The translations under genes were made by a program, and so were the position numbers. Below are positions 4,685 through 62,910 of a stretch of DNA of 64,000 bases, one piece after another (position 1 is the first letter of the stretch; each line of letters begins with the position of its first letter). The stretch spans positions 184,294 to 248,293 of the forward strand of contig JBAYVA010000002.1 in NCBI GenBank assembly GCA_041674805.1, in the 5' to 3' direction. The notes beneath the pieces were generated by a model. The model was given only the letters and a program-made list of their open reading frames with translations, was not told where the DNA came from and made no database searches. This DNA comes from Candidatus Magasanikiibacteriota bacterium. Lineage in GTDB: Bacteria > Patescibacteriota > Patescibacteriia > Magasanikbacterales > UBA922.

Positions 4685-7192
4685 ATGGCACGTTTGAAAA
4701 GTATTATAAAATCAAAAAGTAGCACTGAAGAGAGTGCTGTGGAGGGAACTATTGTCGAAAAAATCGAACCTATCAATTTGGTGAAAGAAATGGAAACATC
4801 TTATTTGGATTATGCTATGAGTGTTATCGTTTCTCGTGCTTTGCCAGATGTGCGCGATGGTCTAAAACCTGTGCATCGTCGTATTTTGTATGCTATGTGG
4901 GAACTTGGTCTCAAACATAATTCTAAGTTTCGTAAATCAGCGCATGTGGTTGGTGGCGTAATGGCCAAATTCCATCCGCATGGTGATAGTGCTATTTATG
5001 ATTCGTTGGTACGTATGGCCCAAGATTTCAATATGCGTGAAATGTTGGTAAATGGTCAAGGTAACTTTGGTTCAATGGACGGAGATGGTGCTGCTGCTAT
5101 GCGTTATACAGAAGCCAAACTTCGTGCGATTGCTGAAGAATTGATTTTTGATATTGAAAAAAATACTGTAAATTTTTCACCTACTTATGATGGCTCTTAT
5201 AGAGAACCAAATGTTTTGCCTGCCAAATTACCAAATTTACTTTTGAATGGTAGTATGGGTATTGCGGTTGGTATGGCTACAAATATTCCTCCACATAATC
5301 TGACAGAACTTTGTGATGGTATTATGGCCTTGATTGAAAATCCAAAATTAGGAATTGAAGAATTAGGAAATTATATCAAAGGACCAGATTTCCCAACTGG
5401 TGGTATTATTTATAACAAAAAAGATATTGAAGTAGCTTATGCTACTGGACGTGGTGGTATTGTGATGCGTGCTAAAACAGATATTCAAGAATCTGAAAAA
5501 AATGATAAAATGCAAATTATCATTACCGAAGTTCCTTATCAAGTAAACAAAGCAACTTTGATAGAAAAAATTGCGAGCTTAGTACAAGAAAAGAAAATTG
5601 AAGGTATCAAAGATTTGCGTGATGAATCAAACAAAGAAGGTGTCAGAATTGTGATTGAGTTGAAAAAAGATTCTTATCCAAAAAAAGTTTTGAACAAACT
5701 TTTCAAATTAACAGAATTGCAAACAACTTTTCACGTTAATATGTTGGCTCTTGTAGATGGTATTCAGCCTCGTGTTTTGAATTTGAAAACTATTTTGGAA
5801 GAATACTTGAAACATCGTCAAATAGTTGTGCGTCGTCGTACTCAATTTGATTTGGATAAAGCTTTGGATAGAGCTCATATTTTGGAAGGTTTGAAAAAAG
5901 CTTTGGACAAAATTGATCTTATTATTGCTCTTATTCGAAAATCAAAAGACAAAGATGAAGCCAAAATAAATTTGATGGAAAAATTTTCTTTTACCGAAAA
6001 GCAAACTATGGCAATTTTGGAAATGAGATTGCAACAACTTGCTAATTTGGAACGTCAAAAAATAGAAGATGAACTTAAAGAAAAACAAAAATTGATTGCA
6101 GAATTAGAAGCTATTTTGAAGAGTGAAAAAAGAATTATGAGTATTATCAAATCTGAAGTAGAAACTATTAGACAAGTTTATGGTAATGCTAGACGTACTC
6201 AAATTGTTTCTCATGGTGTCAAAGAATTTAATATTGAAGATTTGGTACCAAATGAACCAACTCTTATTATCTCTACTCGTGATGGTTATATCAAACGTTT
6301 GCCTCCAGATACTTTCAAACAACAAAGCCGTGGTGGCAAAGGTGTGATTGGTTTGACCACCAAAGAAGAAGATGTTGTAGACAAAATTATTTCTACCAAT
6401 ACTCATGATAATATTTTGTTTTTTACTACACGTGGTCGTGTATTTCAATTAAGTGCTTATGATATACCTTTGACTGCTCGTACCTCAAAAGGACAAGCTT
6501 TGGTAAATTTCTTACAACTTGCACCAAATGAAAAAGTTTCTGTATTTTTGTCACTTGCTAATTTGAGTAGTTATGAATCATTAGTGATGGTGACAAGTAA
6601 AGGTAATATCAAAAAAACTAAGATTGAAGATTTTAAACACGTTCGCAAATCTGGTTTGATTGCTTTAAAACTAAAAGAAAATGATTTGTTGGAATGGGTA
6701 CAACCAACAGCTGGTAACAATGATGTGATGATTACTACTTCTATGGGTCAATCTATTAGATTTAGAGAAAAAGATGTTCGTCCAATGGGTCGTACTGCTT
6801 CCGGTGTACGTGCTATCAAATTAAAATCAACAGATGAAGTAGTAGGTATGAGTATTTTGGATAATAGTTTGGTAAAAATGAAAGTCTTGGAATTGTTGGT
6901 AGTCTCTGAAAATGGTTTAGGCAAGAAAACTAAAGTCAATGAATACAAAGTGCAAGGTCGTGGTGGTAGTGGTATCAAGACGATGGCTGTTACTTCCAAA
7001 ACCGGTAAAATTATTAGTAGTCAGATGGTAAATAGTACTGAAGAAAAAGATATTATGATAATTTCGGTCAAAGGACAAGTCATTCGTACTTCTCTTAAGA
7101 GTATTTCTACTCTTGGCAGAGCGACTCAAGGTGTTCGTATTATGCGTTTCAAGCAAGAAGGGGACAAAGTAGCAGCGATAGCATTTGTTTAA
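4685..7192 (+). CDS. gyrA: DNA gyrase subunit A.
   Basis: YAMSVIVSRALPDVRDGLKPVHRRILYAM and the catalytic-Tyr region; 835 aa with C-terminal beta-pinwheel repeats. Confidence 0.95.
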   Translation: MARLKSIIKSKSSTEESAVEGTIVEKIEPINLVKEMETSYLDYAMSVIVSRALPDVRDGLKPVHRRILYAMWELGLKHNSKFRKSAHVVGGVMAKFHPHGDSAIYDSLVRMAQDFNMREMLVNGQGNFGSMDGDGAAAMRYTEAKLRAIAEELIFDIEKNTVNFSPTYDGSYREPNVLPAKLPNLLLNGSMGIAVGMATNIPPHNLTELCDGIMALIENPKLGIEELGNYIKGPDFPTGGIIYNKKDIEVAYATGRGGIVMRAKTDIQESEKNDKMQIIITEVPYQVNKATLIEKIASLVQEKKIEGIKDLRDESNKEGVRIVIELKKDSYPKKVLNKLFKLTELQTTFHVNMLALVDGIQPRVLNLKTILEEYLKHRQIVVRRRTQFDLDKALDRAHILEGLKKALDKIDLIIALIRKSKDKDEAKINLMEKFSFTEKQTMAILEMRLQQLANLERQKIEDELKEKQKLIAELEAILKSEKRIMSIIKSEVETIRQVYGNARRTQIVSHGVKEFNIEDLVPNEPTLIISTRDGYIKRLPPDTFKQQSRGGKGVIGLTTKEEDVVDKIISTNTHDNILFFTTRGRVFQLSAYDIPLTARTSKGQALVNFLQLAPNEKVSVFLSLANLSSYESLVMVTSKGNIKKTKIEDFKHVRKSGLIALKLKENDLLEWVQPTAGNNDVMITTSMGQSIRFREKDVRPMGRTASGVRAIKLKSTDEVVGMSILDNSLVKMKVLELLVVSENGLGKKTKVNEYKVQGRGGSGIKTMAVTSKTGKIISSQMVNSTEEKDIMIISVKGQVIRTSLKSISTLGRATQGVRIMRFKQEGDKVAAIAFV

Positions 7193-7640: not shown

Positions 7641-8822
7641 ATGTCAAAACAAAATTTTGAAGAACTTTTGAAAGACTATTTTGCTAACATTCCAAAAGTG
7701 AATGATTTAGTAAAAGGAAAAGTTATCGCTATTGATAAAGGTGAAGTACGTGTTGACGTCAACGGTATTATCGTTGGTGTGGTACGTGGACCTGAACTTT
7801 TCACAGAATCAAAAGAATTCTCAGATATCAAAGTAGGTGACGAAGTAGAAGCTACTGTTATCGAAGACGAAAATGAAAACGGTGAAATGGAATTATCTTT
7901 CCGTGTCGCTGGCAACAAATTGGTCTGGAACAGAATGGCAAAAAATGTACAAGAAGGTACTATTGTCAAAGCAAAAATATTGGCAGCTAACAAAGGTGGT
8001 TTGATGTTACAATCAGATGCTTTGGTAGGTTTTATGCCTGTATCACAATTGAATCCAAACAATTATCCACGTGTTCAAGGTGGTGACAAAAATAGAATTT
8101 TGGAACACTTGAGAAAATTCATTGGTGAAACTATCAAAGTAAAAGTTATCAATGCTGACATGGATGGAGAAAAACTTATTTTCTCTGAAAAAGAAGTTTG
8201 GGAAGAAGAACAAAAAAATGTATTAGATTCTTTCAAAGTAGGTGATATCGTAGAAGGTGAAGTAAGTGCTCTTACATCATTTGGTGCTTTCATCAAATTT
8301 GGAAAAAATTTAGAAGGTCTTGTACATATTTCTGAAATCGTTTGGCAAAGAATTAGTCACCCTCGTGAAGTGTTAAAAGTAGGTGATAAAATCAAAGCTC
8401 AAATTATTGATTTGAACAAATCAAAGATTTATTTGTCAATCAAGAGATTGGTAGATGATCCTTGGAAAAAAGTAAAAGATACTTATAAAGTTGGTCAAAT
8501 TATCAATGCAGAAGTTCACAAAATTGAACCATTTGGTCTTATGGTCAAACTTGATGAAGAAATTCATGGTTTAGCTCATATTTCTGATTTGAGTGAAAAA
8601 CGTGTACCAGATGCAAAGATGCTTCTTTCAAAATTCACTGTTGGTCAAAAATATAATTTTGAAATTATTTCTATTGAACCAGCTGAACACCGTTTAGGTT
8701 TGAAACTTGAAGGTGTAAATAAAAAAGAAGAAAAGAAAGAAGTTAAAGCTGAAGAAAAAGTGGAAGAAAAAAAAGAATCAGCTCCAGCTGAAGCTCCTGT
8801 TGAAAAAGAAGAAAGTAAATAA
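7641..8822 (+). CDS. rpsA: 30S ribosomal protein S1.
   Basis: Four S1-domain repeats (GKVIAID..., G(D/E)IVEGEV..., VGDKIKAQIIDL...) and an acidic Lys/Glu-rich C-terminus. Confidence 0.9.
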   Translation: MSKQNFEELLKDYFANIPKVNDLVKGKVIAIDKGEVRVDVNGIIVGVVRGPELFTESKEFSDIKVGDEVEATVIEDENENGEMELSFRVAGNKLVWNRMAKNVQEGTIVKAKILAANKGGLMLQSDALVGFMPVSQLNPNNYPRVQGGDKNRILEHLRKFIGETIKVKVINADMDGEKLIFSEKEVWEEEQKNVLDSFKVGDIVEGEVSALTSFGAFIKFGKNLEGLVHISEIVWQRISHPREVLKVGDKIKAQIIDLNKSKIYLSIKRLVDDPWKKVKDTYKVGQIINAEVHKIEPFGLMVKLDEEIHGLAHISDLSEKRVPDAKMLLSKFTVGQKYNFEIISIEPAEHRLGLKLEGVNKKEEKKEVKAEEKVEEKKESAPAEAPVEKEESK

Positions 8823-11915: not shown

Positions 11916-11932
11916 CATATTTTTAAATTTAG

Positions 11933-12023
11933 CGGAGAGAGAGGGATTCGAACCCTCGGTCCCGATATGATCGGGACACCGCTTTTCGAGAGCGGCACCT
12001 TCAACCAACTCAGACATCTCTCC
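11933..12023 (-). tRNA. tRNA-Ser (anticodon CGA), a type II tRNA with a long variable arm.
   Basis: Reverse complement GGAGAGATGTCTGAGTTGGTTGAAGGTGCCGCTCTCGAAAAGCGGTGTCCCGATCATATCGGGACCGAGGGTTCGAATCCCTCTCTCTCCG. The acceptor GGAGAGA/TCTCTCC pairs fully, the anticodon loop is CTCGAAA, the variable stem is TCCCGAT/ATCGGGA and the T-arm is GAGGGTTCGAATCCCTC. Confidence 0.85.
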
Positions 12024-12041: not shown

Positions 12042-13295
12042 TTAGTTTGTATAATTAATTATTTTTTTTGATAAACTTAAATATATTAAAAACCAAAACA
12101 GAATGGCTAAATCGTTTTTTATATAAGGTGAATCTACTAAACCTGTTATAAGTAACATTAGTAAACTTAATAATAAAAAGTTATTATAAATATTTTTTTC
12201 TTTGATATTTTTGTGTAATATATATACTAAGATTATTATAAATGATAGCAAACCTATTAATCCAGTATTTACCCAAATTGTCAAAAATATGTTGTGAGGA
12301 TGATGGTATATTTCAATATATTCACCATTTACTTTTTGATGATATGTTTTTATTTCTTGGCTATAAGAACCTAAACCACTTCCTTTTATTGGATGATCTT
12401 TTAAATACTCTAAAGTTTCTTTCCAAATTCCAATTCTAATTTGTCCAGATCTGTCTTGTAGTATTAATTCTGTTTTTATATTTTGTAATTTTGGTAAATT
12501 AAAAATTAATAGTGATGAAAATATTGTTAATATTATGATAATCCAACGTGTTTTTTTATAGAATAGAAGAATTAAAAATATTGCACTGAAAATACTTACC
12601 AAAGCTCCTGTAGACTTGGCAAAGAATATAGCAGGTAATGATGTAATTATAAATAAAGTTCCTAATAAAAAAGGCCATGATTTCACTGAGTGGTTTTTTA
12701 GATTATATAGTGCTATTGCAAAAATTGGTGCCAAAAATAATCCAACTCCATTTGGAAATCCATACCATGCTGTTACTCTGTAAGTATTAAGATTTTCCCA
12801 AAAAGCATATGGTACAAAAAATCCTGTAAAATGTTGATAAATAGCAAATAAGGATGTGGCTAGTCCAGACATTAATAAACCATTTATTATATATTTTTTT
12901 ATATCTATAGATATATTTGTAATTATAAAAAATAGTATTATTGGTTCTAGATAAAAAGCTTTCCATTCACCTAATGCTTGTTTTGTGTTGTGGTTAAATA
13001 ATATAGATACAGTAGCAAAAAATAAAAATAATAAAATTGAGATGTATAATAATTTATTTTTTTTAAAATTTATTTTTAAATTATTTATAATTTCATTTTT
13101 ATATTTTATAAAACTAATTATAATTAGTATGATAATTTGTAATTCTAAAAAAGTTGTTGGAATTTCTAAAAAATTAAAACGTAATAGATAAGTAGGTAAA
13201 AACAAAGCTAATAAAAAAAATGAGTATTCAATTTTTTTGAAACTAATAATTGTAAAAATACTTAAATAAACAATTGTTAAAAACCACATTATCAT
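12042..13295 (-). CDS. O-antigen ligase / Wzy-like polysaccharide polymerase family membrane protein (paralog 1).
   Basis: 12 predicted TM segments; 'HPHNIFLTIWVNTGLIGL' and 'LVDSPYIKNDLAILFW' motifs are shared with the gene at 13732..15006. Confidence 0.65.
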   Translation of the reverse strand: MIMWFLTIVYLSIFTIISFKKIEYSFFLLALFLPTYLLRFNFLEIPTTFLELQIIILIIISFIKYKNEIINNLKINFKKNKLLYISILLFLFFATVSILFNHNTKQALGEWKAFYLEPIILFFIITNISIDIKKYIINGLLMSGLATSLFAIYQHFTGFFVPYAFWENLNTYRVTAWYGFPNGVGLFLAPIFAIALYNLKNHSVKSWPFLLGTLFIITSLPAIFFAKSTGALVSIFSAIFLILLFYKKTRWIIIILTIFSSLLIFNLPKLQNIKTELILQDRSGQIRIGIWKETLEYLKDHPIKGSGLGSYSQEIKTYHQKVNGEYIEIYHHPHNIFLTIWVNTGLIGLLSFIIILVYILHKNIKEKNIYNNFLLLSLLMLLITGLVDSPYIKNDLAILFWFLIYLSLSKKIINYTN

Positions 13296-13466: not shown

Positions 13467-13555
13467 AAATGAGAGAGGGATTCGAACCCTCGGTCCAGCT
13501 TGCGCAGAACAACTGATTTCGAGTCAGTCCCATTCGACCACTCTGGCATCTCTCC
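13467..13555 (-). tRNA. Second tRNA-Ser(CGA)-like gene whose 3' acceptor strand is replaced by unrelated sequence; possibly a pseudo-tRNA.
   Basis: Reverse complement GGAGAGATGCCAGAGTGGTCGAATGGGACTGACTCGAAATCAGTTGTTCTGCGCAAGCTGGACCGAGGGTTCGAATCCCTCTCTC, but then ATTTATACC follows instead of TCCG. The D-arm, anticodon arm (CTCGAAA) and T-arm are canonical. The last three acceptor pairs would be A-A, G-U and G-U. Confidence 0.55.
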
Positions 13556-52477: not shown

Positions 52478-52505
52478 ATCCCTCGTCGTATTCTCGACTC
52501 GGGAT
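52478..52505 (+). promoter_or_regulatory. Hairpin-family copy 2, immediately 5' of the znuB start.
   Basis: ATCCCtcGTCGtattctCGACtcGGGAT. Confidence 0.5.
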
Positions 52506-56643: not shown

Positions 56644-56820
56644 TATTCGCCAGCCATTGTTCCAAGTAAAAGTAAAAATAATACAACTATCGCACCAATA
56701 GTTACAACTTTTTCATAGATGGAACGTTCTTTCCATGATTTCATAAATTGAATCACTACGAAGTGAATCAGAAGGTAAATCATTATAACTCCTATTACAA
56801 TGTAAAAAATTTCCATTACA
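56644..56820 (-). CDS. Possible small two-TM membrane protein (58 aa), below the ORF-track length cutoff.
   Basis: Manual translation of the reverse complement gives MEIFYIVIGVIMIYLLIHFVVIQFMKSWKERSIYEKVVTIGAIVVLFLLLLGTMAGE. Confidence 0.25.
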
Positions 56821-57059
56821 AAAGTTCAAACAAGAAATGAAACTTCGAAGATTTAGCAATAAGACTATAAAAAGCTATCTGTATTATACACAAGAGTGCC
56901 TGCGCTTTGCAAGGACTGTGAATAACTATTTTTTTATTTAAAGTTCATTTTTATTTTACATTTATCCCCATTTGTTCTAAAATAGAAAAGTAGTTAAACT
57001 ATACGAGTTGTATTTACTAAATTTATTTGATTATATAGTGAAGCTCTTACTTATGAAAG

Positions 57060-57624: not shown

Positions 57625-57652
57625 ATCCCTCGCTGTATCCTCAGCTCGGGAT
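57625..57652 (+). promoter_or_regulatory. Hairpin-family copy 4, 12 nt before the ATG at 57665.
   Basis: ATCCCtcGCTGtatcctCAGCtcGGGAT. Confidence 0.5.
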
Positions 57653-57664
57653 GACGGAAAAATT

Positions 57665-58897
57665 ATGAAAGTAGCAATAATAGGTGGAGGAGCGGCTGGC
57701 ATGATGTGTGCGGCGACAATTGTAGAAGAACATCCAGAGGTGGAAGTGTTTTTGATTGAAAAAAATAATTCTTTGGGTAAAAAAGTGATTATCTCTGGGG
57801 GTGGGCGTTGCAATGTGACGACTGGAATTGATGATTTGAAATTGGTTTTGAGCAAATATCCTCGGGGTAATAAGTTTTTACAATCGGCTATGCATAGATT
57901 TCCACCAAGCAAAGTTTTTGAATGGTTTGAAAATCATGGAGTAGAACTCAAATGCGAAGATGATTTGCGGGTTTTTCCTGTTTCCAATGATGGTCATGAT
58001 ATTGTTGCTGTATTTGAAAAAATATTTAAAAATGCAAAAACAAATTTACTTTTCAAACACAATATGAAAAATATTGTGAAGAAAAAAAATAAATTTGTAA
58101 TATCTTTTGCTGAACAAGAAGATTTGGAAGTAGACAAAGTCGTCATGGCTCTGGGTGGACAGGCTTATCGTCAGACTGGCTCAACTGGAGATGGTTATGA
58201 TATTTTGGAAAAACTGGGTCACAAAATTACTGAGTTGTCACCAAGTCTAAACTCTTTTTTAACTCAAGAAAAATGGCCAAAAGAATTGTCAGGTCTTTCT
58301 TTTGTCAAAGCTGTGATAAAAGTCAAAGGTCATAAAAAATATCAATTCACAGGACCTTTTCTGTTTACACATACGGGTGTAAGTGGACCAGCTGTTTTCG
58401 CTTTGTCAGCGATGATTGCTTTTGAAAAATATGATAGACAAAACCCGTTAGAAATTTTGATAGATGTTTTGCCGGACAAAAATGTAGAAGAATTGTTTGT
58501 TGAATTGCAAAGATTGCGTGAAGAAAGTTTACAAAAAACATTCAAAAATACTTTGCACAATTTTTTGGTAAAATCTCTTAGTGAAAAAGTTTGTGAAAAT
58601 TTGAAGATTGATTTTGAAAAGAAAAATGTTGAGATGAGCAAAAAAGATTTGCGAGCAGTAGCCGAATATATCAAAGCTTTGCCTCTAAAAATTATTGGTC
58701 GTGGGGCAGGGGACGAATTTGTGACTGCTGGTGGAGTAGAGTTGTCAGAAGTCGATCCAAAGACTATGGAATCAAAAATTTGTTCTGGGCTCTATTTTGC
58801 GGGAGAAATTCTGGATATTGATGGTTTTACTGGTGGATTCAATCTCCAGGCTTCTTGGGCGACGGGGAGAGCGGCGGGACTGGCGGTTGTTGACTAG
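57665..58897 (+). CDS. FAD-dependent oxidoreductase of the HI0933/BaiN family.
   Basis: 'KVAIIGGGAAGMMCAA' dinucleotide fold, 'ISGGGRCNVT' and C-terminal 'GEILDIDGFTGGFNLQ'. Confidence 0.8.
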   Translation: MKVAIIGGGAAGMMCAATIVEEHPEVEVFLIEKNNSLGKKVIISGGGRCNVTTGIDDLKLVLSKYPRGNKFLQSAMHRFPPSKVFEWFENHGVELKCEDDLRVFPVSNDGHDIVAVFEKIFKNAKTNLLFKHNMKNIVKKKNKFVISFAEQEDLEVDKVVMALGGQAYRQTGSTGDGYDILEKLGHKITELSPSLNSFLTQEKWPKELSGLSFVKAVIKVKGHKKYQFTGPFLFTHTGVSGPAVFALSAMIAFEKYDRQNPLEILIDVLPDKNVEELFVELQRLREESLQKTFKNTLHNFLVKSLSEKVCENLKIDFEKKNVEMSKKDLRAVAEYIKALPLKIIGRGAGDEFVTAGGVELSEVDPKTMESKICSGLYFAGEILDIDGFTGGFNLQASWATGRAAGLAVVD

Positions 58898-58940
58898 TTG
58901 TGGTAATATATTTTTGTAATTTTGTTATATTTATATATTT

Positions 58941-61535
58941 ATGGCTGATAAAAGAGAACCTTTTGGGGGAACATTATCATTAGAAATAGAATCAAAAGAA
59001 GAGGGTAATGCTGAACTTGATTTTTTATTGAGTAAAATAAGAGAAATAAAAAGTATTTTAGAGTTGTTTCCTTATATGGATATGACAATACTTTATGATT
59101 TAACTAGTAAAGAAGAAAAAAAAGAAACGGTTCAAGATTTATTGGATCTTTTGAAAAAAGTGGAAGATGAGATAAAAACAAAATTTGAGTCTGGGGAATT
59201 AGTTAGTCAAGATGATGTTGATAAGTATCTTAAATTATTAAATTTTTTGGAAGTAGATTTTTGGAGTTTGATGTCAGAAAAAATTTCTCAAAAAGCAGGG
59301 TTTTCTTACAAAGCAGTACTTGAATGGCCAGAAGAATATTTAGATCGTGATTTTCTTTCTCAAAAAACAAAAGTTTTTGATACATTTGTTAAATCAGTTT
59401 TGACTTCAGCAGAATATTCTTATGAAGCTGTGTTGAGTTGGCCAGAAGAATATTTGGACAAGACTTTGAAAGGAGAAAGTGAAACAGTTTTTGCTAGATT
59501 GGTAAGGGAAGTCTTGACTTCTATAGAATATTCTTATGAAGCTGTATTGAGTTGGCCAAAAGAATATTTGGATAAAACTTTGGATGGTGATAATGAGACC
59601 ATTTTTGCTAGATTAGTAAAAGAAGTTAGGATATTAGCGGAATATTCTTATAAAGCACTAATGAATTGGAAGGAGGAATATTTACTTAGAACTTTGGAAG
59701 GTTGTAATGGCAATGTCGTGTCTATCTTGACTGCGGCGGTTTCTGATCCTGAGATTGAATCTTCTTCACTTTATTCAAGTCAAATGATTTTGGGATGGTC
59801 AGACATCTACAAAAAAAGTCCTTATAATTATACACCTGAAGACTATGCTAGATTTTTTAATCAAGTTTTAACAAATCCAAAATTAGTCGTTGATATTTTT
59901 GAAGAAAATTTTTCTTATTTTTCTGTGTCCGAGTTAGAATCATTGTTGAAAAGTGTTGTTTCTTCGCAGAAAGCTATTTATTATGCGTTAACAACTTGGG
60001 ATAGTAGTACACTTGATAAAAAAATAGGAAAAGATGGTAAAGATATTTTTTTTGTTTTAGCTTCAAATCTGGATTTTAATCATGTTGACAATTTAAATCT
60101 TAATAGTTTGTGTTTGTTATCAGAAGATAAATATTTAGATAGAGTTTTGGATGGAAAAAATACTTTTTTTACAAAATCAATATTGGCAATTCGTGATAGT
60201 ACAAATTTGTTTATTTATCTTCCAGCTTATTTTAGCAAAGATTATTTGTCTAGAAGTATGCCAGATACAGACAAAACTATCTTTGATCTGGTGGTGGAAA
60301 AAGCCCTAAAAATACCTTATTTTGCCTATGTGGCTGCTTTGAATTGGCAAAAAGAATTTTTGGATATAGTACAAGAAGGTGAAAATGAAAGTATACTTTC
60401 TAGACTTTTGGATGTTGTCAAAAAAGATAGCGAGTATTCTCAATTATTGTTAGTTACTTATAGCGAAGACAGTTCTACTCTAGATAGTCATTTTGTTGAT
60501 TTAGTTGAAAAAGTATTAGAATCTCCAGAATTTTCATATGAGGCTTTGTTGACTTGGCCAGAAGATCATTTGAATAAAATTATTTCTGGAAGTGCTGAAA
60601 CTGTTTTTTCAAGACTTTATGAAAAAGCATTACTTTTTGTGGAAGAGAAAAAAGAAAATAAATATAAATTATTTTTATTTTTGACAAAAAAACAGAGTGA
60701 ATCTAGTAGTATAAAAGATATTACACAATTTTTAGCTAGTTTGAGAGAAAGTTTAATAAAAGATGAGAGTTTTTATTTTTGGATTATTGGTAAATTGTAT
60801 CAGAAAGATAAAGATGTGTTAAAATTATTGGAGGATTTAGAAATTTTTGAAAAACTTATTGAATCTGTTTCTAATGATCCTAAAGATAGTGGTATTTTGT
60901 TAACTTCTTTGCCAGATTATTTATTGGATAAAACAGTTGGGGATAAAGAAGACAATACTTTTTCAAAATTGGTGAGAAAAAGTTTTGATGCTGAAAATTA
61001 TACTATTGTTCATACTTTATTAAATTTGGATTATTCATATTTAAATAGATGTTTACCTGGTGATGCTGAAAAAATATTTTATAAATATATAAGGTTAGTA
61101 ATTAATGATCCAAATTCTGCTCATTCACTTTTGTTGTTTTTGTCTGATAATTTACTTTTTGATACTTTGCCAGGTGATGATATGAGCATTTTTTTTAGAT
61201 TGGTTGAAACTGTTTCAACAAGTCCAAAATCTTCACTAGATTCTATTAAAGAAATATCTGAAGCAAAATTATATAGAAAATTTCCAGGTACAGGCAAAAG
61301 AGTTATTGAAATGTTTGTTGATTCTGTTTTGCAAGATCATCGATGGGTAAGTGATTTGATTCTTCATTGTGAAATACTTTTTTTAGAGTATATCATTCCA
61401 GATGATAACAAAAGTGTTTTAAAAAAGTTAGTTTCGGTTTTATCTGATGATGAGATCGTTAGATTGAAAAACCTTTTTTTAAGTAATAATCGAAAATTAC
61501 GTAGGAAGGATTTATTTTTAGAAGCAATTAAATAA
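58941..61535 (+). CDS. Large cytoplasmic helical-repeat protein of unknown function, with about 38-aa repeats.
   Basis: '(Y/F)SYEAVLSWPEEYLDKTL.G..ETVFARLV.EV' recurs at least 12 times with increasing divergence; no signal peptide or TM helix. Confidence 0.6.
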   Translation: MADKREPFGGTLSLEIESKEEGNAELDFLLSKIREIKSILELFPYMDMTILYDLTSKEEKKETVQDLLDLLKKVEDEIKTKFESGELVSQDDVDKYLKLLNFLEVDFWSLMSEKISQKAGFSYKAVLEWPEEYLDRDFLSQKTKVFDTFVKSVLTSAEYSYEAVLSWPEEYLDKTLKGESETVFARLVREVLTSIEYSYEAVLSWPKEYLDKTLDGDNETIFARLVKEVRILAEYSYKALMNWKEEYLLRTLEGCNGNVVSILTAAVSDPEIESSSLYSSQMILGWSDIYKKSPYNYTPEDYARFFNQVLTNPKLVVDIFEENFSYFSVSELESLLKSVVSSQKAIYYALTTWDSSTLDKKIGKDGKDIFFVLASNLDFNHVDNLNLNSLCLLSEDKYLDRVLDGKNTFFTKSILAIRDSTNLFIYLPAYFSKDYLSRSMPDTDKTIFDLVVEKALKIPYFAYVAALNWQKEFLDIVQEGENESILSRLLDVVKKDSEYSQLLLVTYSEDSSTLDSHFVDLVEKVLESPEFSYEALLTWPEDHLNKIISGSAETVFSRLYEKALLFVEEKKENKYKLFLFLTKKQSESSSIKDITQFLASLRESLIKDESFYFWIIGKLYQKDKDVLKLLEDLEIFEKLIESVSNDPKDSGILLTSLPDYLLDKTVGDKEDNTFSKLVRKSFDAENYTIVHTLLNLDYSYLNRCLPGDAEKIFYKYIRLVINDPNSAHSLLLFLSDNLLFDTLPGDDMSIFFRLVETVSTSPKSSLDSIKEISEAKLYRKFPGTGKRVIEMFVDSVLQDHRWVSDLILHCEILFLEYIIPDDNKSVLKKLVSVLSDDEIVRLKNLFLSNNRKLRRKDLFLEAIK
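59298..59753. repeat. Four tandem 114-nt coding repeats, the middle two nearly identical at the nucleotide level, inside the helical-repeat protein gene.
   Basis: 'gaatattcttatgaagctgt' recurs at 59412 and 59526, with related units at 59298 and 59640. Confidence 0.8.
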
Positions 61536-61557
61536 TTAATAATTAATAATTAATTTT

Positions 61558-61818
61558 ATGCCAAAAGAAACATACAAAGTATCTGGTGACAAACTTGTCA
61601 CTAAAGTAAAACAAATTATCAAAGAAGGTAATGCTCGTAAGATTATTATCAAAAATGAAGAAGGAAAAAAACTAATTGAATTTCCAATCACTATTGGAGC
61701 TATTGGAGTTTTGGCAGCACCACTTATCGCAGCTGTCGGTGCTATGGCAGCTTTGCTTACTAATTGTGAGATTGAGGTAGAGAAGAAGAGTACTGTTAGT
61801 GACAAAAAGTCTAAGTAA
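61558..61818 (+). CDS. DUF4342-domain small protein.
   Basis: 'KIIIKNEEGKKLIEFPITIGAIGVLAAPLIAAVGAMAALL'. Confidence 0.55.
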   Translation: MPKETYKVSGDKLVTKVKQIIKEGNARKIIIKNEEGKKLIEFPITIGAIGVLAAPLIAAVGAMAALLTNCEIEVEKKSTVSDKKSK

Positions 61819-61955
61819 AACAATCCGGATATACAGATAATACGGATTTACGGATTTGGCCTACGCAAAAAATTGTCTGTGGTAATTTGTGTAATATTTG
61901 TGTTATTTAATATAGTATAATCTAAAAAATTTTTAATACAGTAATAATATAATTT

Positions 61956-62319: not shown

Positions 62320-62910
62320 ATGAAGAAAAGTAACTTGAGTTTGTTAGTAGTAGCTTTTAGTATGCTTTTTGTGGGAGCTGGTTGTTCTTACGAAGCATCA
62401 GTTGGTGAAGTAAAAGATTTACCTCTTCCTGTTAGCGAGGTAAAAGAAGTTACTGTAGCTGATAAAAGTGGTAATTTTAATATCAGTGGTAATATTGCCG
62501 AAGATTGGACAGAAAACAAAGAAGCTGACCCTCGTGTATTAACAATGTTTTTTTCTCCAGAAGCAGAAGGTGATGCTTTTCGTGAAAATATAAATATTAT
62601 GGGTTTTCTTTTTGCCGAAGGTGAAGCAGAAATGACAATTGATGAATATGTAGATAGTGCAATGGCTGGATCTGAACAAGCTCCTGGTTACAAACTTTTG
62701 TCTAGAAAATCTCTTACAGTAGATGGTTATCCTGCAATTACTGTTGCTTATCAAGCTGATAATGCTAAAGCAGGACGTTTACAATTTGAACAAACACTTT
62801 TCAAAACAGAAAAAGAAGGTTTTCTTGTAACTTTTACAGGAACTCCAGAAGGTGTTGTAAAATTTGAACAAGATTATCAAGATTTCTTGAAGAGTATTAG
62901 TGTAAAATAA
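62320..62910 (+). CDS. Putative lipoprotein.
   Basis: Signal peptide with lipobox 'FVGAGCS'; 196 aa. Confidence 0.5.
   Translation: MKKSNLSLLVVAFSMLFVGAGCSYEASVGEVKDLPLPVSEVKEVTVADKSGNFNISGNIAEDWTENKEADPRVLTMFFSPEAEGDAFRENINIMGFLFAEGEAEMTIDEYVDSAMAGSEQAPGYKLLSRKSLTVDGYPAITVAYQADNAKAGRLQFEQTLFKTEKEGFLVTFTGTPEGVVKFEQDYQDFLKSISVK

Follow-up and report, generated by a model that had tools for sequence, protein, structure and literature searches.

The stretch of DNA analysed here (the window) is 64,000 nucleotides (nt) of contig JBAYVA010000002.1 from a Candidatus Magasanikiibacteriota bacterium. The gene of interest within it encodes a protein of 864 amino acids (aa), most of which consists of a tandemly repeated unit of about 38 residues, and is followed by a small gene for a DUF4342 protein. 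The evidence described below suggests that this is an accessory gene of restricted distribution, inserted between two conserved genes and encoding a probable alpha-solenoid. The features of the locus are as follows, in window coordinates.

57665..58897, + strand: HI0933-like flavoprotein gene, the conserved left flank of the syntenic block
58898..58940, + strand: upstream spacer, in which 58898-58922 is the putative ancestral DUF4342 upstream region and the final 18 nt belong to the inserted segment
58899-58907: promoter-like TGTGGTAAT, in the putative ancestral DUF4342 upstream region
58923..61538, + strand: inserted segment, found in the window and in loci L001 and L010-L013 and missing from the syntenic loci L002-L008
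58941..61535, + strand: repeat-protein gene, 864 aa, acidic, predicted to be cytoplasmic and all-alpha; WC070_03560 in the NCBI metagenome-assembled genome (MAG) of Candidatus Magasanikbacteria
58941..59297, + strand: N-terminal non-repeat domain (aa 1-119), predicted to be helical and not matched by the hidden Markov model (HMM) of the unit
59298..61475, + strand: complete repeat array (aa 120-845), about 19 units of roughly 38 aa, of which u5-u6 and u13-u14 are degenerate
59298..59753, + strand: the four best-conserved tandem 114-nt units, u1-u4, in the phase of an earlier reading of the sequence; target of the confident AlphaFold2 (AF2) model
61476..61535, + strand: C-terminal basic tail FLSNNRKLRRKDLFLEAIK plus stop codon
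61526..61554, + strand: (AATTAAT)x4 microsatellite, covering the stop codon of the repeat gene and the spacer
61558..61818, + strand: DUF4342 gene, 86 aa, basic, with one hydrophobic segment
61956-62276, + strand: FKBP-type PPIase gene, conserved right flank
62320-62910, + strand: PsbP_2-like gene, conserved right flank

The open reading frame (ORF) encodes an acidic protein [isoelectric point (pI) 4.8; D+E 17.3% vs K+R 12.3%] in which neither a signal peptide nor a transmembrane segment was detected, the highest mean Kyte–Doolittle hydropathy over 19 residues being 1.28. The earlier reading, made from the letters alone (the sequence-only reading), had described an 864-aa cytoplasmic protein without a signal peptide, and both the ORF and its hydropathy agree with this. 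The repeat array is evident in the DNA as well as in the protein. At 59374-59709 Tandem Repeats Finder detects an array with a period of 114 nt, and an iterated HMM of the unit finds 15–16 units in the protein, the strongest of them with E values of 1e-18 to 1e-23, far above chance. The starts of the units are spaced by 38, 38, 38, 151 (approximately 4 × 38), 37, 38, 33, 37, 80 (approximately 2 × 38), 38, 39, 38, 38, 38 aa; once the degenerate stretches are filled in by inspection, about 19 units extend over aa 120-845. The consensus derived from them is xxW(P)xxYL(D)xxxxGxxxxxFxxLVxxVxxxxxxSYxAx. Tandem Repeats Finder, the unit HMM and this consensus all concur with the repeat of about 38 aa, and with the consensus, that had been proposed from the sequence.

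Tetratricopeptide (TPR) units are 34 aa long with the pattern W4-L7-G8-Y11-A20-F24-A27-P32, ankyrin units are 33 aa long with a TPLH motif, and ARM units are about 42 aa long with three helices. The 38-aa unit does not show the unit length and signature residues of TPR, Sel1, HEAT, ARM or ankyrin repeats, and in Pfam-A neither these profiles nor that of PPR matched the window protein, its distant relative P0124 or the longer allele P0129 (both described below). A Pfam-A hmmscan of the 864-aa protein (E ≤ 1) gave just two sub-threshold and unrelated matches, NBAS_11th and DUF2335. Similarly, NCBIfam, PADLOC and PHROGs gave no match to the repeat protein, and PDB sequences none to either the protein or the unit profile. 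The 'DKTLDGDNET' loop was also considered as an EF-hand-like motif, but on inspection its key positions vary among the units and this idea was set aside. The claim of the sequence-only reading that the repeat belongs to no recognised class therefore held throughout these searches, by which the 38-residue unit is outside any described sequence family and forms a new repeat sequence family.

Two models were calculated with AF2. The model of the full-length protein was based on an alignment of 2 sequences and was not used for fold searches; it places helices of the N-terminal domain, at low confidence, at aa 24-41, 62-83 and 90-117. For aa 127-283 a pseudo-alignment (A5) was assembled from 4-unit stretches of the window protein, its orthologue and its paralogue. 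The resulting model is confident [predicted local distance difference test (pLDDT) score 86, predicted template modelling (pTM) score 0.81] and repeats one secondary-structure pattern in every unit. In the modelled unit three helices, of 9 (VFARLVREV), 10 (EYSYEAVLSW) and 4 residues (EEYL), are followed by a closed loop that includes a β-bridge (DKTLxGxxET). The alpha-solenoid class in general consists of tandem helical-hairpin or three-helix units that form an elongated, non-globular stack, a description that the modelled units fit. The conserved residues (W, Y, L, F, L, V and V) are hydrophobic and presumably form the core of the solenoid, the variable positions presumably being exposed, and the hairpin loops would project as ankyrin fingers do. 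Searching the PDB with Foldseek returned generic helical-repeat neighbours only, all below significance (best E 0.36, TM ≤ 0.35), and nothing significant was found in the viral library (best E 0.34). The model would thus describe an alpha-solenoid without a specific structural relative among solved structures.

Among known systems, ARM and HEAT repeats resemble the window repeat in having tandem units of about 37–47 residues with two or three short helices and solenoid stacking, and they usually form protein-binding scaffolds; the best of the weak structural matches to the model include ARM, HEAT and designed ARM proteins. As in ankyrin repeats, an antiparallel helix pair is followed by a hairpin-like loop, which in ankyrins is the binding surface, and a few giant-virus ankyrin proteins occur among the weak viral fold matches. 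However, the window unit has 38 residues and not 33, the TPLH and GH motifs are missing, there is no match to Pfam Ank and ankyrins are missing from the top PDB fold matches. A third comparison is with the octotricopeptide repeat (OPR), the unit of which is 38 residues long. OPR proteins are basic RNA binders of organelles, and this shared unit length, together with the basic C-terminal tail of the window protein, would fit an array that binds nucleic acid in the manner of PPR, OPR, Pumilio or mTERF proteins, at one or a few nucleotides per 38-aa unit. The strongly acidic composition of the window protein argues against such a role, and it differs from OPR/RAP-associated proteins further in having neither a sequence match to them nor a RAP domain. 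Pfam gave no match to PPR, PUF, mTERF or RAP, and the conserved positions are those of a hydrophobic core rather than a basic or aromatic ladder. Nucleic-acid binding is the least probable of the explanations considered here.

The repeat protein has very few relatives. Apart from the protein itself, a word-indexed search of 5.8e9 proteins recovered a single fragment, 85% identical, and an exhaustive phmmer search of 1.84e9 cluster representatives recovered four matches, comprising two fragments of the orthologue, P0124 and one false positive. The latter (P0125, a WD40 protein from Chloroflexota, E 3e-4) was discarded because the match, to strings of the 'LRTLEG' type, is spurious, and the three true matches are all tied to Magasanikbacteria or their metagenomes. 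A scan of metagenomes gave one match, which is an allele already known. GTDB representative genomes scanned with the window protein and with P0124 gave no match by a method that sees close relatives only, and neither viral contigs nor phage records contained a match to the repeat protein. No paralogue lies elsewhere within the 64-kb window. A protein search with a double-unit profile returned no matches but also missed the parent protein itself, and is not counted as evidence of absence. No relevant literature was found on DUF4342/PF14242 or on repeats of Magasanikbacteria.

P0124 (HAO52840.1, a hypothetical protein of Candidatus Magasanikbacteria; 525 aa, 36% identity, E 1e-16) is the sole true distant relative. 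It contains about 8 units, which share the signature W-x3-Y-L ... F-x2-L-V ... S-Y with those of the window protein. It differs in that its units are 31–38 aa long with a trimmed hairpin loop, in a non-repeat C-terminal region of about 170 aa and in its locus, where the gene is followed not by a DUF4342 gene but by an unrelated 79-aa ORF and then iPGM. Directly upstream of P0124, about 4 kb without called genes is found in three independent contigs (L015 3797-7810, L016 1011-5024 and L017 335-4166), which may be a ribosomal RNA operon or another non-coding feature.

Several observations bear on whether the ORF is a real gene. Its 864 codons remain open at 28% G+C, a base composition from which about 8% of random codons are estimated to be stops. 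Compared with the orthologue there are 63 synonymous and 125 non-synonymous differences, and the ratio of non-synonymous to synonymous substitution rates (dN/dS) is 0.48 (P = 1.2e-5 for a value below 1). Premature stops in relatives, which the sequence-only reading had named as a sign that would count against it, were not found in intact loci. In L001 an in-frame stop and a lost N-terminus suggested a pseudogene, but both lie 87 nt from a contig end and the lineage itself has intact full-length copies, so that an assembly break accounts for them, and P0123 likewise ends at a repeat-induced break. The 1037-aa allele is intact in four assemblies. It could nevertheless be proposed that repeat amplification merely left behind a decaying or non-functional ORF without a cellular role, since the ORF is an orphan of very narrow distribution with a raised dN/dS and many degenerate units, and close relatives manage without it. 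This is highly improbable, because two lineages keep frames of 2.6–3.1 kb intact in DNA that is AT-rich, the dN/dS is significantly lower than 1 and the core residues of the unit are conserved with a paralogue of only 36% identity. On comparative grounds the ORF is a real accessory gene, confined to a single lineage.

The identification of the downstream gene by the sequence-only reading, as a DUF4342 gene beginning 22 nt after the repeat gene, was confirmed: it matches PF14242 with E 6e-25 (87.5 bits vs a cut-off of 25, model positions 5-81 of 81). The protein has a pI of 9.6 and one hydrophobic segment at about aa 42-68. PF14242 is annotated in 219 homologues, and even in Bacteroidales MAGs the DUF4342 homologues are 60–70% identical and stand alone among unrelated neighbours. 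The closest relatives of the DUF4342 gene share the gene order of the window, namely a 144/145-aa membrane ORF, HI0933-like, DUF4342, FKBP and PsbP_2. In these seven syntenic loci the repeat gene is missing and the HI0933-like gene is directly followed by DUF4342 (L002-L007, with flanks of about 91% DNA identity, and L008, with 79%). The breakpoints given by blastn are at 58922 and 61539 vs L008 and at 58881 and 61557 vs L002-L007. The L008 spacer, 41 nt long, aligns colinearly to the window as far as 58922 and then from 61539 onwards, and the spacer of L002 contains no remnant or scar of the repeat gene. The repeat gene therefore lies between the old upstream region of DUF4342 and the DUF4342 start codon.

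The repeat gene and DUF4342 were previously proposed to form a two-gene module, in which, for example, the solenoid might dock on the cytoplasmic part of a membrane-anchored DUF4342 protein. Both genes are on the same strand, 22 nt apart in the window and 15 nt apart in the sister lineage, a search between them revealed no terminator-like site, their charges are complementary (pI 4.8 vs 9.6) and the arrangement is kept in both lineages that carry the repeat gene. However, these two lineages are close (dS about 0.15), which points to one event rather than to independent conservation, and co-occurrence with DUF4342 across independent lineages was not observed. The seven syntenic loci with DUF4342 and without the repeat gene, the occurrence of DUF4342 alone in distant phyla and the location of P0124 away from DUF4342 do not support the proposed module, which is unlikely. 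They indicate that the adjacency results from one insertion in the upstream spacer of DUF4342, common to two close lineages. The 22-nt gap and the lack of a terminator-like site nonetheless make it likely that the two genes are co-transcribed.

A promoter for such a transcript may be present in the ancestral spacer. The TGTGGTAAT sequence occurs twice in the window (58899-58907 and 61878-61886), both times upstream of a gene, and the two copies may be promoter elements of an extended −10-like type. Two copies are not significant in number alone, and the sequence was not accepted as a recurrent promoter motif; it was retained only for its conservation with the L008 spacer, which contains the TGTGGTAA(T/G) motif. 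The motif at 58899-58907 would be a putative promoter. The second copy, at 61878-61886, is located upstream of the FKBP gene, where its sequence is conserved in L002 and L010. Also downstream of DUF4342, L010 contains at 8360-8440 an extra insert of about 40 nt with the GC-rich hairpins GCCTGCCGTCAGGCAGG and CCGCCTTGGGCGG, which is missing in the window (61819-61860) and in L002.

The inserted segment is a single non-transposase ORF with AT-rich microhomology ('TAATT') at both junctions. Neither terminal inverted repeats nor flanking direct repeats that would mark a target-site duplication were found at its ends, so that it lacks the hallmarks of a transposon or insertion sequence. Insertion by horizontal transfer, as cargo of a mobile element or a prophage remnant carrying for example a defence or anti-defence factor, must still be considered. 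Presence of the gene varies among close relatives, it evolves fast, its G+C content is 28% vs approximately 32% for the window (25–26% in the 3′ half), and its neighbourhood is variable, with a tyrosine-recombinase gene about 4 kb upstream in relatives and a 95-nt fragment of it in the window. Against this, the recombinase gene is found in loci both with (L010) and without (L002 and L003) the repeat gene, and the G+C at third codon positions (GC3) and codon usage of the repeat gene are inside the range of the other window genes. The insertion of one gene without terminal repeats, the lack of matches in PADLOC, PHROGs, phage records and viral contigs, and the fact that the sole relative is another protein of Magasanikbacteria also make a mobile origin distinctly improbable. 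The recombinase fragment itself (56819-56913) shows 94.7% identity over 95 nt to the 5′ portion of a tyrosine-recombinase (Phage_integrase) gene, of which relatives have an intact copy (L010 206-1048). The adjacent DUF1801 / Pyr_excise / HD block is also missing from the window, where other small ORFs take its place; together, the fragment and the missing block indicate that the region upstream of the locus has been rearranged.

The history of the array differs from that first proposed. Two adjacent 114-nt units (59412-59525 and 59526-59639) had been described as nearly identical and as the result of a recent single-unit duplication. In that phase the identity of the pair is only 78% (89/114 nt), the flanking units 59298-59411 and 59640-59753 being 61% and 58% identical to 59412-59525. 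In the phase of the HMM (units starting at aa 127, 165, 203 and 241) DNA identity is 67% for u1/u2, 76% for u2/u3 and 49% for u3/u4. The u2/u3 pair, which is the same pair in this other phase, has a dS of 0.76 and a dN of 0.20. Orthologous units differ from those of the sister lineage by a dS of 0.0–0.4 (0.15 for the complete gene), so that the dS of the pair is roughly fivefold the value for the window gene and its orthologue. Units u1-u4 are common to both lineages, and the duplication is therefore older than the split of the lineages and not recent.

The length of the gene has changed by another route. The sister-lineage allele P0129, the DNA of which is identical in four independent assemblies, encodes 1037 aa and is 519 nt longer than the window allele. 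It contains a tandem duplication of the N-terminal domain plus two units (nt 54-547 vs 561-1072, 84% identical). The window gene is 91.6% identical to copy 2 and 83.6% to copy 1. Past nt 98 there are 9 sites unique to the window gene and 9 unique to copy 2, and 54 sites set copy 1 apart from both; these counts date the block duplication to the lineage split or earlier. The first 95 nt or so of the window gene are copy-1-like and the remainder copy-2-like (Fisher P about 0.01, with a breakpoint picked after inspection), which suggests that the 864-aa allele arose by an unequal crossover deleting one copy. An unduplicated ancestral state with a fast-evolving copy 1 would also be compatible with the data. 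Whichever history holds, the alignments place the length change in a 519-nt block and not in single units. The idea of ongoing expansion or contraction therefore stands as far as the difference in length (864 vs 1037 aa) is concerned, but not for steps of single 114-nt units. On a smaller scale, the AATTAAT microsatellite has 4 copies in the window and 3 in the sister lineage, with spacers to DUF4342 of 22 vs 15 nt.

Two further features were observed in the region. A GC-rich hairpin motif (AAGAAAGATCCCTCG ... TCGGGAT) occurs in the window at 52478-52505 and 57625-57652 and in L002 at 4885-4925. It is positioned just upstream of start codons (GTG 52507, ATG 57665 and that of DUF4342 in L002-L007), and its inner stem has compensating changes (GUCG/CGAC vs GCUG/CAGC) with no match in Rfam. 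It may be a regulatory structure of the 5′ untranslated region or a miniature repeat element. Elsewhere in the window two tRNA-Ser(CGA) genes (11932-12023 and 13467-13555) flank an ORF at 12042-13295 with an unusually low G+C content (21.8%; GC3 12%), and the first ARAGORN tRNA overlaps a listed 144-aa ORF.

Taken together, the reading that best accounts for these observations, to which we assign a probability of roughly 60%, is that of a lineage-restricted accessory gene encoding an N-terminal domain of about 119 aa and a cytoplasmic alpha-solenoid of about 19 units, an inserted scaffold or adaptor with no obligatory link to DUF4342. Its internal similarity shows that the gene arose from one 114-nt unit, amplified again and again in tandem, and the 519-nt difference from the 1037-aa allele that its length still shifts through unequal recombination of larger blocks. 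The insertion would be a gain that took place in the ancestor shared by the window and L010 lineages, after which the repeat gene would have come to be transcribed from the former promoter region of DUF4342, together with DUF4342. The architecture of a conserved core and variable surface, the acidity and the hairpin loops suggest a role in binding proteins, and not in catalysis or in binding nucleic acids, and the protein may therefore be a scaffold or adaptor that holds its partners through the hairpin loops and a variable, acidic surface.

A number of points weigh against this reading. The dN/dS of 0.48 is high compared with that of neighbouring genes (0.06–0.29) and fits weak constraint or a diversifying subset of sites, and Pfam supplies no known domain for either the window protein or P0124. 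The full-length AF2 model is poor (pLDDT 51) and does not fix the overall shape of the superhelix, and the confident model depends on a pseudo-alignment of intragenic repeats and one paralogue. With respect to gain or loss, the spacer of L002-L007 is unlike both of the other states, so that a loss there is possible. Finally, co-transcription would permit a newly acquired link with DUF4342, for which the comparative data leave room.

A broader proposal builds on the same accessory gene. It is conceivable, though doubtful, that the 'W-P-E-E-Y-L ... hairpin ... F-x-x-L-V' unit represents a new class of alpha-solenoids confined to Magasanikbacteria, whose proteins act as strain-variable accessory factors that diversify by duplication and deletion of blocks, perhaps determining specificity inside the cell, be it in phage defence or in the episymbiotic way of life of these members of the candidate phyla radiation (CPR). 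In that case capture of the promoter of a conserved membrane-protein gene might be accompanied by a partnership that is still evolving.

The locus illustrates that two genes lying side by side in one genome provide weak evidence of a functional module. The importance of the finding is modest, as the function is inferred, no long-standing question becomes testable, and insertion, promoter capture and block recombination make an ordinary story for accessory repeat proteins. For the alpha-solenoids, a well-known class, it adds a previously undescribed repeat sequence family, and for the genome-reduced CPR bacteria it would provide a clean, small example of the gain of an accessory gene.

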